Positions 15,814 to 36,885 of a stretch of DNA of 64,000 nucleotides are shown here, piece after piece. The notes below the pieces were generated by a model. That model had not been told where the DNA came from. It saw only the letters and a program-made list of their open reading frames with translations, and ran no database searches. Position 1 is the first letter of the stretch. Every line of letters begins with the position of its first letter. Location: assembly GCA_963705385.1 (NCBI GenBank), contig OY970075.1:381673-445672 (forward strand). The letters run 5' to 3'. The position numbers were made by a program, and so were the translations under genes. Source of the DNA: an uncultured Cytophagales bacterium. GTDB taxonomy: Bacteria > Bacteroidota > Bacteroidia > Cytophagales > Amoebophilaceae.

Positions 15814-16652
15814 GGCTCTGTTGTAAATAGAGGGTATAGAGGCTAACTTTAAGATCTGTTAATGATTAATGGGCAATAAACATACAAACCTTCAAAAGAG
15901 GCTATCTAATACGACCTCATCATCTAGGCCCTAAGATAGGATTGTAAGTACGGAATTAGCTATTGTGATTTGGGAGAGATGTTAGGTGGGTGGGAGTAGC
16001 CGTAGATCACTCTGCCCAATACCACTGTATGTAATATTACGCTCCTAAGCTATTAGACAGACTAAAATGATATTAAAATTAAAAGTCTAGGCTGGGCTTA
16101 TAGCTGGTACCTGGATGAGGCCTGTATTATAAAGAGCCAATGGGCTTATTGCTACAGAGCACTAGATGAAGCGGGTATACCATTTTTATCTATCCCCCCC
16201 TACGCGCAACAGCAAAGTTGAAAAACGCTTCATCAGCAAATCCGTGAGCATTTTAAAAAAATGGAAGCAACCCCAAGCCATTTATACAGACAAGCATCCC
16301 TGCTATAAAAAAGTTATAGTTGAGCTGGAAACAGCAGGAAAATTCCCCATGGACATAGAGCACAAGCAGGTCAAATCCTGCAATAATAGGCTCGAATCGG
16401 ATCATGGGAAGCTGAAGCGCTTGGTCAGCGCCACGCTGGGTTTTAAGACCATGAAAAACAACCTATGCAATCCTAAAAAAATGTTTGAGATAATGCGGAT
16501 GTTTAAAAAGGGGAGATTGATTTATAGAAGTATGGACAAGGGCTTCAAAGAGAAATTAGAATTATTACCAACAACTTATTGCCTTACTAGAGAAACACCT
16601 CTCCCAGCACTATGATCCAAAATTATTTATCTCTCCTATTTGCAACAGAGCC
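15814..16652 (+). mobile_element. IS6-family insertion sequence (~839 bp) with near-perfect terminal IRs and a decayed transposase
   Basis: IRL at 15814-15830 is GGCTCTGTTGTAAATAG. The reverse complement of IRR at 16636-16652 is GGCTCTGTTGCAAATAG (16/17 match), close to the IS26-type GGCACTGTTGCAAA end. The size fits the IS6 family. I see no 8-bp target duplication. Confidence 0.8.
15862..16615 (+). pseudogene. IS6-family (IS26-like) DDE transposase, frameshifted with internal stops
   Basis: The ORF at 16166-16615 contains TDKHPCY...EHKQVKSCNNRLESDHGKLKRLVSATLGFKTMK, matching the IS26 Tnp C-terminus (DHGKLKR, TLGFKSMK). Upstream pieces (ISYCDLGEMLGG, WAYSWYLDEACI.KSQWAYCYRALDEAG) lie in other frames with stops. 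Confidence 0.8.
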
Positions 16653-28911: not shown

Positions 28912-29250
28912 GGCTATAAACGGCACTGGATGGTCGATGGACAGGGAGGGTTGGTATTACAGTGCATACCACCAGCGCTAATAGTCATGAAAGTAAGTGA
29001 CTACTAAGACTTTTAGAAAAGGTGGAGATCTAAGAGCAGGGACATTCTTTGAAGGCTAGAACAATTAGCAACACAACAGGCTAAACAGGGTGATCATATC
29101 AAGTAACGCTACGAATTTTCCAGACTCCTTACTATAGAAAAGGTCAGGCCAAGGCCTAAAATAGGTTTTAAAGTTCAATAACATTTGTTGGCTTGCTCAA
29201 CTGCGCAATGAGTCCAGGTCTGTAGGGTATCCCGCGATTGCAGTTGCCAT
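28912..29250 (+). pseudogene. remnant of an IS5/IS4-superfamily DDE transposase (C-terminal part) with multiple stops
   Basis: One frame reads GYKRHWMVDGQGGLVLQCIPPALIVMKVSDY*..., resembling the GYKRHxxVDxxGLxLxxxVTxANxHD block. A later segment, KIGFKVQ*HLLACSTAQ*VQVCRVSRD, resembles KGFxVLPKRWVVERTFAWLxxxRRLSKDYE. The match is weak and from memory only. Confidence 0.4.
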
Positions 29251-29322
29251 CTATTCTTTAGAATTCTTTGTTTGCTGCTTAAACTGGCAAGTGTGCTGTA
29301 TGGCACCACTTCCAAATGGATT

Positions 29323-29400
29323 GAGACCGTTGTAAAATGGGATAGCTAACTCCGTTTGTAGCTTGTAAACAAATATTTTTTAGAATTTTGCAACGGTTTC
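29323..29400 (+). mobile_element. 78-bp MITE-like element derived from the IS6-family IS (copy M1)
   Basis: The ends are GAGACCGTTGTAAAAT (29323-29338) and the reverse complement of 29385-29400, GAAACCGTTGCAAAAT. The subterminal GGGATAGCTAACT resembles the IS6 left subterminal GGGTATAGAGGCTAACT at 15832-15848. It is homologous over its whole length to the inverted copy at 36809-36885. Confidence 0.6.
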
Positions 29401-29462
29401 AAATTCAATGGTATAAGGAATGAACTATCAGATGACTAAATAGAACGAAATTATAGCGTGAG

Positions 29463-32297
29463 CTAATTTGCATCCAGCCAATTCTTACCTGTCTTTACAT
29501 CCACCTCAATGGGTACTGCTAAGGGCAGCGCCTCTTTCATCATATTGGGGATGTTTTCCTGTAGGAGGATTACTTCCTCCTTGTGGGCGTCAAAAACCAG
29601 TTCATCGTGTACTTGTAAAATCATACTAGAACGGAGTTTTTCCTTTTTCATCCATGTGTGGATACGAATCATGGCCAGCTTGATCATTTCTGCGGCACTG
29701 CCTTGGATAGGGGTATTAATGGCATTCCGTTCTGCAAAGCCGCGGAGCGCTGCATTCCTGGAGTTGATATCTCTGAGCCATTTTTTCCTACCAAGTAGTG
29801 TTGTGACATAGCCTTGGACCCTAGCTTTTTCAACCATTGCATCGATATAAGCCTTGATAGCAGAAAACTCTTCAAAGTAAGCCTGAATTAGGGCAGCAGC
29901 TTCTTTTCGGGGAATGTTGAGGCGCTGCGAAAGGCCAAAAGTAGAGATACCATAAATGATGCCGAAGTTGGCAGTCTTAGCCTTGCGCCGCATGTCTTGG
30001 TCTACAGCTTCTATGGGCACTTTAAAAAGTTGGCTAGCAGTAGCTTTGTGAATGTCTTTTCCTGCTTCAAAGGCGTTAATCATCGTTGGATCTTGAGCAA
30101 AAGAGGCCATAATACGTAGCTCTATTTGAGAATAATCTGCTGAAAGCAGGAGATGATCAGTGCTTTTGGGCATAAATGCTTTACGGATAGCCTTGCCTTT
30201 TTCAGTGCGGATAGGAATGTTTTGTAGGTTGGGATTTGTAGAGCTGAGTCTTCCAGTATAGGCTACAGCTTGGTTATAAGAAGTGTGAATCATGCCGTCT
30301 ATAGGACTAACCATCGTAGGCAGGGCAGCTACGTAGGTAGAATTAAGCTTTTGTAACTCTCGGTATTCAATAATTTTGGCCGTGATGGGATGCTCCCTAG
30401 CTAACTCCTGCAGCACTTCTTCACCAGTAGCGTATTGGCCTGACTTGGTCTTTTTAATGCTTTCAGTGAGCTTCAGTTTGTCAAATAGGATGTCGCCTAG
30501 CTGTTTAGGAGAAGCAAGGTTAAAAGATTCTCCTGCCAGGGTATAAATTTCATGTTCTAGCACTTGGCGCTCGTGAGCCATCTTTTCAGATAGCCTTGCT
30601 AGTACGTCTGTGTCTATTTTAACGCCATGGCGTTCCATAGCAGCAAGTACATTGACGAGCGGAAATTCTACTTCATAAAGGAGTTGCTCTAGCCCTTGCA
30701 CAGCAATTTCAGCTTTCAGCTTCTCTTGGAGCTGCAGCGTGATGTCAGCGTCTTCACCAGCGTATTCCTTAACCAATGCCACATCAACCTCTTTCATGTT
30801 TTTCTGAGACTTCCTTTGAGGACCTATTAAGGCTTCTATGGCAATTGGTGTATAGTGCAGATAACTTTCTGCTATCACTTTGATGTTATGGCGCATATCA
30901 GATTCAAGCAGGTAATGCGCTAGCATGGTGTCAAAGATGGGCTGGCTAACCTCTATGCCATACCGCTGCAGAACCCTGATGTCGTACTTAAGGTTTTGCC
31001 CAATTTTACAAATCTCTTTGCTTTCTAGTACTCCTTGGAAGGCTTGTACAACTGTTTTGGCTGCTTCATGGTCTTCAGGGAGAGGTACATAGTAAGCTTC
31101 ACCAGGGTAGTACGCAAAGGCAATGCCCAGCAGGGCTGCTTCATGGGGGACAAGGCTAGTAGTTTCTGTGTCGAAACAAAATGCATCTTGTAGAGATAAG
31201 TATTGGATTAACTCTTGCTGCAGTGCAGGCGTATCAATGAGATGGTACTGATGCTTTGTGATGTAGAGGTTAGCTAAGGGAGAAGTGATAACTTTGGGGG
31301 GCATCTCCTCTGACACAGGAGCTTGATGCAACGCTTCAAACAGAGAAGCTTGGATAGTAGGATGCTGCTTAGTAGGGGTTGTTTCTTTGCCAAAGAGCCT
31401 TTGCGTCAGCGTGCGGAACTCTAATTCTTGAAAAAGGGCTTTGAGTTGTGCCTCGTTAGGCCCTTGGTAGCAACTGTGTTCTAGATCAAAGGAGAGCGGT
31501 ACATTGGTGTGGATAGTAGCCAGCTGTTTAGAAATGATACCTTGTTGACCGTAAGTGGCCACGTTTTCCCGCAGCTTTCCTTTGAGCTGGTGGGCATTGG
31601 CTACCAGATTCTCCACTGAACCAAAGGCCTGAATCAGCTTTTTGGCAGTTTTTTCTCCAATACTAGGGATCCCAGGAATGTTGTCTATAGCATCACCTTG
31701 CAGGCCAAGGATATCTCTGACTTGGTCTACATGTTCGATTTCCCACTTGGCCAATACTTCTTCCTTCCCAAGCACATCAACACTGTTACCTAGAAAAGCA
31801 GGTTTGTAAAGGTAGACGTGGTCAGCTACAAGCTGGGAAAAGTCTTTGTCAAGGCTCATCATGTACACCTCAAAGTGCCCCTGAGCTGCTTGTCTTGCCA
31901 AGGTTCCAATGAGGTCATCGGCCTCGTAGCCTTCTTTTTCTACAATGGGTATCTGCAAGGCTTGTACGATCTTCTTGACATAGGGGATAGCCAAGGTAAT
32001 GTCCTCAGGCTGAGCAGCGCGATGTATTTTATAGGCTTCAAAGGCTCGGTGTCTGAAAGTAGGGCTACTATGGTCAAAGGCGACAACAACATGGGTAGGG
32101 TTTTCTTTCTTGATAACTCCTAGTAATGCATTGGTAAATCCCAGTATAGCACCTGTGTTTATCCCCTTGGAGTTGATCATTGGGTTTTTGCTAAAGGCAA
32201 AGTGTGCCCGATAGATGAGTGCCATAGCATCGACCAAAAAGAGCTTATTTCTGGAGGTATTATTGATCATAAGATGAGAAAACGTTGACTTGGACAA
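29463..32297 (-). CDS. polA: DNA polymerase I
   Basis: 944 aa. It has a 5'-3' exonuclease N-terminus (LFLVDAMALIYRAHFA), a 3'-5' exonuclease region, and polymerase motifs (DYSQIELRIMA, QVHDELVF). Confidence 0.95.
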   Translation of the reverse strand: MSKSTFSHLMINNTSRNKLFLVDAMALIYRAHFAFSKNPMINSKGINTGAILGFTNALLGVIKKENPTHVVVAFDHSSPTFRHRAFEAYKIHRAAQPEDITLAIPYVKKIVQALQIPIVEKEGYEADDLIGTLARQAAQGHFEVYMMSLDKDFSQLVADHVYLYKPAFLGNSVDVLGKEEVLAKWEIEHVDQVRDILGLQGDAIDNIPGIPSIGEKTAKKLIQAFGSVENLVANAHQLKGKLRENVATYGQQGIISKQLATIHTNVPLSFDLEHSCYQGPNEAQLKALFQELEFRTLTQRLFGKETTPTKQHPTIQASLFEALHQAPVSEEMPPKVITSPLANLYITKHQYHLIDTPALQQELIQYLSLQDAFCFDTETTSLVPHEAALLGIAFAYYPGEAYYVPLPEDHEAAKTVVQAFQGVLESKEICKIGQNLKYDIRVLQRYGIEVSQPIFDTMLAHYLLESDMRHNIKVIAESYLHYTPIAIEALIGPQRKSQKNMKEVDVALVKEYAGEDADITLQLQEKLKAEIAVQGLEQLLYEVEFPLVNVLAAMERHGVKIDTDVLARLSEKMAHERQVLEHEIYTLAGESFNLASPKQLGDILFDKLKLTESIKKTKSGQYATGEEVLQELAREHPITAKIIEYRELQKLNSTYVAALPTMVSPIDGMIHTSYNQAVAYTGRLSSTNPNLQNIPIRTEKGKAIRKAFMPKSTDHLLLSADYSQIELRIMASFAQDPTMINAFEAGKDIHKATASQLFKVPIEAVDQDMRRKAKTANFGIIYGISTFGLSQRLNIPRKEAAALIQAYFEEFSAIKAYIDAMVEKARVQGYVTTLLGRKKWLRDINSRNAALRGFAERNAINTPIQGSAAEMIKLAMIRIHTWMKKEKLRSSMILQVHDELVFDAHKEEVILLQENIPNMMKEALPLAVPIEVDVKTGKNWLDAN

Positions 32298-36808: not shown

Positions 36809-36885
36809 GGGACTGTTGCAAAACTCAAGAAAATACACGTTTAAAAGCTATAAAGGGAGCTAAAACTTAATTTTGCAACGGTCTT
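36809..36885 (-). mobile_element. 77-bp MITE-like element derived from the IS6-family IS (copy M2, inverted relative to M1)
   Basis: The ends are GGGACTGTTGCAAAAC (36809-36824) and the reverse complement of 36870-36885, AAGACCGTTGCAAAAT. The interior aligns with M1 when reverse-complemented (TAGCT..CC.TTT.TAGCTT.TAAAC...TATTTT). It is flanked by GTTAT on both sides (36804-36808 and 36886-36890). Confidence 0.6.

Follow-up and report, generated by a model that had tools for sequence, protein, structure and literature searches.

The genome examined here is a single contig of 1,055,620 bp with 44% G+C, and the window, that is, the whole stretch of 64,000 nucleotides under analysis, corresponds to its positions 381673-445672. 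In this window, a dead HEAT/NLR-like gene ends at 28536 and is followed by an ORF-free gap of 0.93 kb, on the far side of which lies the 3′ end of polA. The gap holds debris of an IS5-family transposase gene and M1, an element of 78 bp without coding capacity located downstream of the polA stop codon (Table 1). The position given in an earlier note on this DNA, with the NLR-like gene and IS5-like remains on one side and the polA 3′ end on the other, is correct. The debris covers amino acids ~178-269 of a transposase of ~344 amino acids, equivalent to IS positions 533-822 of 1293, and as a relic it belongs to the type of element from which the MITE termini described below came. A terminator-like hairpin with a T-rich tail is also found on the minus strand at window positions 29144-29159, downstream of polA beyond M1. 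If this hairpin is the terminator of polA, M1 would be transcribed in the polA 3′ untranslated region.

Table 1. Features in the window that are discussed in the text (window coordinates).
Feature	Position	Strand	Basis or remark
IS6-type element, proposed parent of M1, rejected	15814..16652	+	ends, termini comparison, mini-pair scan
IS5-family transposase debris, no ends	28747..29042	+	tblastn and blastn against the G012 element, ISCca3 and the remnants in this genome
M1 left flank GGATT, possible decayed half of 5-bp target duplication	29318..29322	.	
M1, 78-bp MITE copy	29323..29400	+	consensus-oriented; nhmmer E=2e-15; covariance model 84.7 bits
M1 terminal inverted repeat GAGACCGTTGTAAAAT	29323..29338	+	sequence reading
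M1 other terminal inverted repeat, ATTTTGCAACGGTTTC on the plus strand, GAAACCGTTGCAAAAT on the minus strand	29385..29400	-	
M1 right flank AAATT, possible decayed half of 5-bp target duplication	29401..29405	.	
polA, 944 aa, normal end GKNWLDAN	29463..32297	-	stop codon 62 bp from M1
M2, second family copy in the window, younger subfamily	36809..36885	-	perfect 5-bp duplication GTTAT; 88% identity to consensus

M1 consists of two termini of 16 nt each, which face each other with 46 bp between them and are complementary at 14 of 16 positions. This layout had been described earlier as a facing pair of IS6-like termini and is borne out, while their IS6 identity is not. When up to three mismatches are allowed, the 16-nt terminus occurs at three sites in the window against 0.33 expected, a number reached by none of 100 shuffles, and the third of these sites is the end of another copy, M2. 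The 5-bp flanks of M1 agree at 3 of 5 bases, which is compatible with an old 5-bp duplication and is no proof of the individual insertion of M1.

A BLASTN search of the genome with the 78-mer of M1 found no second full-length or near-identical copy and gave many short terminal matches only. Since BLASTN gave these terminal matches alone, a profile was needed to detect the family. A genome scan for the 16-mer with up to three mismatches yielded nine facing pairs 60-62 bp apart, i.e., elements of 76-78 bp, and an nhmmer profile seeded with these nine pairs and iterated three times recovered 32 members genome-wide; a covariance model search of this genome found 29. The nhmmer alignment of M1 spans model positions 1-73. 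Thus, the copy-number check by BLASTN that had been proposed in the earlier note does not return a second near-full 78-mer, but the profile search reveals the family, and the situation in which that note would have given up its reading, a genome with no further copies, does not apply.

The family consensus (~77 bp) is GAGACCGTTGCAAAATTAGGTATTTAGCTCCCTTTATAGCTTGGAAACGCATATTTTCTTGAGTTTTGCAACGGTCTC, with the termini GAGACCGTTGCAAAAY. Its copies are 75-78 bp long and non-coding, they have inverted terminal repeats of 16 nt in which 79.8% of the stem cells pair (25 copies), and they are dispersed in many copies over the genome, as is typical of prokaryotic MITEs. Together with the target duplications of the family, these properties uphold the earlier view of M1 as a MITE-like element. 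Mean pairwise identity among the copies is 63%. Compared with the consensus, members of the youngest subfamily show 87-91% identity and M1 shows 79%; between M1 and its nearest sibling, the value is 77%. The MITE family is therefore old and without recent activity. All 32 copies lie outside ORFs of at least 150 aa, though such ORFs make up 78% of the genome, and many copies are located 4-60 bp away from ORF ends. At genome positions 955993-956123, a truncated copy (model positions 1-53) abuts a full copy and the flanks share TATT, which probably reflects insertion of one MITE into another. For two other copies, at genome positions 320853-320929 and 519426-519502, near-identity extends into the flanks for at least 30 bp on both sides; they were copied within a larger repeat and not by transposition.

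To look for target-site duplications, the k bases on the two sides of a copy were compared for the 21 copies whose ends are recognizable. At k=5, four copies have perfect matches (AAATC, GTTAT, AGTAT, and ATTAT) and four more agree at 4 of 5 bases, and as many as four perfect matches never arose in 5000 flank permutations. Among the same 21 copies, perfect matches were found at one copy for k=4 and at none for k=3, 6, 7, or 8. The perfect 5-bp duplications sit at the least diverged copies, as expected because duplications decay with age. At the level of the family, the duplication thus has the fixed length seen in prokaryotic MITEs, exactly 5 bp, and a family copy in a related genome, G006, also has a perfect 5-bp duplication (GCCTT). 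The earlier note had advised looking for 8-bp duplications at other copies; there is none, and no copy has even 7 of 8 flank bases in agreement.

The termini of the family match those of autonomous elements of the IS5 family. The first 16 nt of the MITE consensus agree with IS5-family ends at 14-15 of 16 positions and with IS6 ends at 9-10 of 16, and over 36 nt the alignment z goes up to 8-9 with IS5 ends, whereas with IS6 ends it does not exceed 4.7. The left end of M1 itself agrees at 13-14 of 16 positions with the ends of IS5-family remnants in this genome and at 9-10 of 16 with IS6 ends. The MITE termini are similar, at like identity, to element ends in the genomes G012, G013, and G014. 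Moreover, the stretch 29361-29396 of M1 resembles positions 5-40 of the intact IS5-family element of G012 with 75% identity, where the assignment of the MITE halves to the two IS ends is ambiguous.

In this genome, IS5-family elements survive as remnants. Their ends are GAGACCGTTGCAAAAA at genome positions 64663, 66180, and 114919, and GAGACCATTGCAAAAY at 79052 and 1019507. From 114919 to ~116400, there is a degraded transposase gene that terminates in GAGACCGTTGCAAAAAGG, and its fragments match NF033581 (IS5 family transposase), PF05598 (DUF772), and PF01609 (DDE_Tnp_1). Solo ends GAGACCATTGCAAAAYTAGGGAGG are located at 79052, where the end adjoins an N-terminal transposase fragment, and at 1019507. 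A search for an intact IS5-type transposase in this genome found none; there are ten fragments, all below the NF033581 cut-off and most with stop codons. Because the genome thus has no partner transposase for current mobility, the family is now immobile.

Two loci outside the window were considered as longer elements and rejected. The 900-bp interval 1018608-1019507 has a solo end only and no transposase similarity. The 1518-bp interval 64663-66180 is not an autonomous parent; it is a 507-bp IS5-family shell with two short IS5-type transposase fragments and 54-bp inverted ends (GAGACCGTTGCAAAAAGTATTG..., 96% identical), interrupted by a 1011-bp copy of an IS481 element. This deletion derivative of an IS5 element may represent a step on the way from a full IS to a MITE. 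The IS481-family element is ~1010 bp long with ends TGTTTAGTCCC...GGGACTAAACA, and it has at least seven near-full copies (genome positions 189413, 500789, 609720, 646990, 786136, 791589, and others) and a fragment at window positions ~1408-1456. Judging from the 95-97% identity among its near-full copies, this IS seems to be the one with the latest activity in this genome. Its ends (TGTTTAGTCCC...) are unrelated to the MITE ends.

Intact elements of the IS5 type are found in relatives. The genome G012, from the same family of bacteria (1.45 Mb), has about a dozen intact transposase copies scoring up to 262 bits against the NF033581 cut-off of 140. Both ends were found for seven copies of the element, which have a length of 1293 bp (1299 bp in one case) and end in GAGGSCGTTGCAAAAC. 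Five of the seven have perfect 5-bp duplications (AATTT, ACCTT, AGTCT, GTATC, and GTGTT), one agrees at 4 of 5 bases, and one has none. The transposase of G012 is 51-54% identical to Cardinium proteins, and the 51% match is the protein named "IS5-like element ISCca3 family transposase" at NCBI. The ISCca3-like element of Cardinium is 1286 bp long, has the ends GAGACCGTTGCAATA, and is flanked by a 5-bp duplication (ATTTT). Both ISCca3 (termini GAGACCGTTGCAA...; relatives ISCca5 and ISCca7) and the G012 element have termini like those of the MITE, and their transposases are of the same type as the remnants in this genome, namely DUF772 plus DDE_Tnp_1 and NF033581. In contrast to these two elements, M1 keeps just ~20-40 nt of either end, and its partner transposase is extinct in this genome. 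The 5-bp duplication length is equal in the MITE family, the G012 copies, and ISCca3, and this agreement, together with that of the termini, connects the MITE with an ISCca3-like element of the IS5 family. In ISfinder, duplications of 4 bp are the usual entry for the IS5 group, and the 5-bp figure rests on the relatives analyzed here. G012 carries dozens of IS5-family copies; its proteins (1,446,063-bp contig) are labeled "MAG: ... [Roseivirga sp.]" at NCBI, yet it falls into one bacterial family with the small symbiont-like genomes. ISCca3 has been assigned to the IS5 group of the IS5 family (Halter et al., PMC9769881).

Taken together, the family including M1 is very probably a MITE made from the two ends of an ISCca3-like element of the IS5 family (IS5 group, DUF772 plus DDE_Tnp_1). 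It would have originated by internal deletion of such an element and would have been mobilized in trans by cut-and-paste chemistry. In this scheme, the transposase of the full-length element would bind the terminal repeats of ~16-20 bp (GAGACCGTTGCAAAAY), excise the MITE, and integrate it at a 5-bp staggered cut so that 5 bp are duplicated, with a preference for AT-rich intergenic DNA. After the intact transposase was lost, the ~32 copies would have been left as immobile fossils drifting apart, and M1 would be the one that landed in a non-coding gap with a dead NLR-like gene and IS5 debris on one side and the 3′ end of polA on the other. M1 itself is an inert, aged copy of an IS5-derived MITE, and there is no evidence of any activity at its site.

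The copies may have gained a role after the death of the transposase. In such a case, they would have been co-opted as transcript-end or regulatory hairpins in a reduced genome and kept for this reason, and their presence in five genera would mean retention rather than mere slow decay. The exclusively intergenic placement of the 32 copies, the short distance of many of them from ORF ends, and the position of M1 in a probable polA 3′ untranslated region have been cited for this idea, and function, instead of common descent, could in theory account for the conservation of the family interior. Nevertheless, co-option is considered unlikely. Scans for promoters and terminators gave nothing meaningful.

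Another reading, in which the 77-nt family is primarily a hairpin of structured RNA or DNA (for instance, an sRNA, a terminator, or a REP-like element) maintained for its fold and resembles an IS only secondarily, is improbable. The family consensus is predicted to fold into a long hairpin of -16.1 kcal/mol (z -6.0) and M1 into one of -10.3 kcal/mol (z -2.8), and the placement of the copies near ORF ends and of M1 behind polA would suit such a structure. However, any element with terminal inverted repeats would fold in this way. Covariation in the 16-pair stem of 25 copies is 0.186 against 0.175 in shuffles and is reached by 96 of 500 column shuffles, and therefore does not rise above them. 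Rfam contains no curated family that matches (best E 0.36, far under the gathering score), and no T-run follows M1, so that it is not a typical intrinsic terminator. In addition, the 5-bp duplications and the matching IS5 ends already explain the origin of the family.

According to the earlier note, M1 is a miniature version of the IS6-family element at 15814-16652; an IS6 transposase would then have moved M1. The IS6-type element, whose ends are GGCTCTGTTGTAAATA and GGCTCTGTTGCAAATA as had been stated, is the sole full copy in the genome. The MITE and elements of the IS6/IS26 family (ISCca2 and ISCaa16 type) do have the core GTTGCAAA of the terminal repeat in common, with its GTTGYAAA motif, but the outer six positions differ (GGCTCT against GAGACC), and agreement with the IS6-type terminal repeat (GGCWCTGTTGCAAA) stays at the 9-10 of 16 positions mentioned above, so that the suggested alignment of M1 with the IS6 ends turns out poorer than that with the IS5 ends. 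The left end of M1 aligns with IS6 ends at z 3.2-3.8, and the echo of the IS6 subterminal sequence is indeed present; with z about 3, however, the likeness is weak, and the IS5 ends surpass it with z up to 9. The T/C asymmetry at GTTGYAAA, which had been taken as a sign of IS6 parentage, is not a trait of the family, because C is the consensus base at the two ends, and T variants turn up at one end or the other depending on the copy. IS6/IS26 elements move by cointegrate formation with 8-bp duplications, a poor fit to simple short insertions, and the duplication of this family is 5 bp and never 8. Moreover, a genome scan found IS6-type termini at the single dead IS6 copy and at a few solo fragments, never as mini-pairs. 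IS6 parentage is thus contradicted already and highly improbable.

Finally, that the right terminus of M1 is just the surviving end of the decayed IS5 copy at 28747-29042, in which case the 78-bp unit would not be independent, is hardly credible: debris in the same orientation does lie ~280 bp upstream, but in the coordinates of the G012 element it stops at IS position ~822 of 1293 with a projected end at ~29513, inside polA and not at 29400, no IS5 similarity is found in 29043-29322, and the fit of M1 to the MITE model runs from end to end and takes in the terminus facing the opposite way. Because the projected end falls inside polA and no homology links the two, M1 is a separate insertion beside an IS relic.

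The distribution of the MITE was examined with the covariance model in 48 genomes of the same bacterial family, including this one, the others being from genera besides g1, to which this genome belongs. At a threshold of E ≤ 0.001, the family is present in 5 of 18 genera. This genome has 29 matches; the numbers for the other genomes are upper bounds, since some weaker non-self rows represent one locus on both strands. These are 23 in G014 (genus g15), 16 in G006 (g7), 8, 3, 3, and 2 in G053, G054, G057, and G003 (g4), and 3 in G012 (g13). No match was obtained in 17 genomes of ~1 Mb from genus g16, presumed to be Cardinium, or in G031, G005, G032, and G033 of genus g6, presumed to be Amoebophilus.

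Among the papers searched, the only MITE reported for this symbiont group is MITECca01/02 of Cardinium cOegib, which is ~240 bp long, derives from ISCca4 of the IS982 family, and has 169 copies in one strain only (PMC9769881, 2022); it is also cited in a MITE review of 2024 (PMC10969869). A survey of IS elements in Amoebophilus does not mention MITEs (PMC3196728), and the present element is not mentioned in the Amoebophilus and cBtQ1 papers. In these papers, the terminus string gave chance matches only and none in a relevant context. Thus, the family is apparently undescribed, though of a thoroughly known kind. MITECca01 and this family are both IS-derived and mostly intergenic, and, judging from genome sizes and transposase hits, they probably occur in the same bacterial family. 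They differ in that MITECca01 is ~240 bp and derived from IS982 with parents that are probably still intact, whereas this family is 77 bp and derived from IS5, with ~30 diverged copies, a range of five genera, and no intact parent here. It would therefore be a second, unrelated, and much shorter MITE family for a bacterial family that probably includes Cardinium.

As for its meaning, the annotation of the element is corrected from IS6-derived to IS5-family sequence, and the family flags intergenic repeats that annotation pipelines miss. Because it outlived its transposase and is common to several genera, it is usable as a marker of a past IS5 burst during genome reduction. The understanding of MITEs is unchanged by it; M1 is an ordinary genomic fossil in a small symbiont-like genome, and it is relevant mainly to annotation and to how IS elements have decayed over time in reduced genomes.

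A pattern scan across all species genomes also revealed analogous short elements elsewhere, which have near-identical termini and different interiors. Since such elements occur in unrelated genomes, MITE formation from IS5-family ends of this kind seems to have happened repeatedly. Those in Flavobacteriales and Puniceicoccales are 70-76 bp long, and their termini, GAGACCGTTGCAAAAC or AGACCCGTTGCAAAAT, are similar to those of the MITE described here. In a Flavobacteriales MAG (OZ253556.1; loci L032 and L033), one copy is flanked by a 5-bp repeat (AATTT) and the repeat of the other can be read as 5 or 6 bp, and copies in a Puniceicoccales MAG (JAITFC01; L034, L035, L037, and L040) have flanking repeats of 3 bp.
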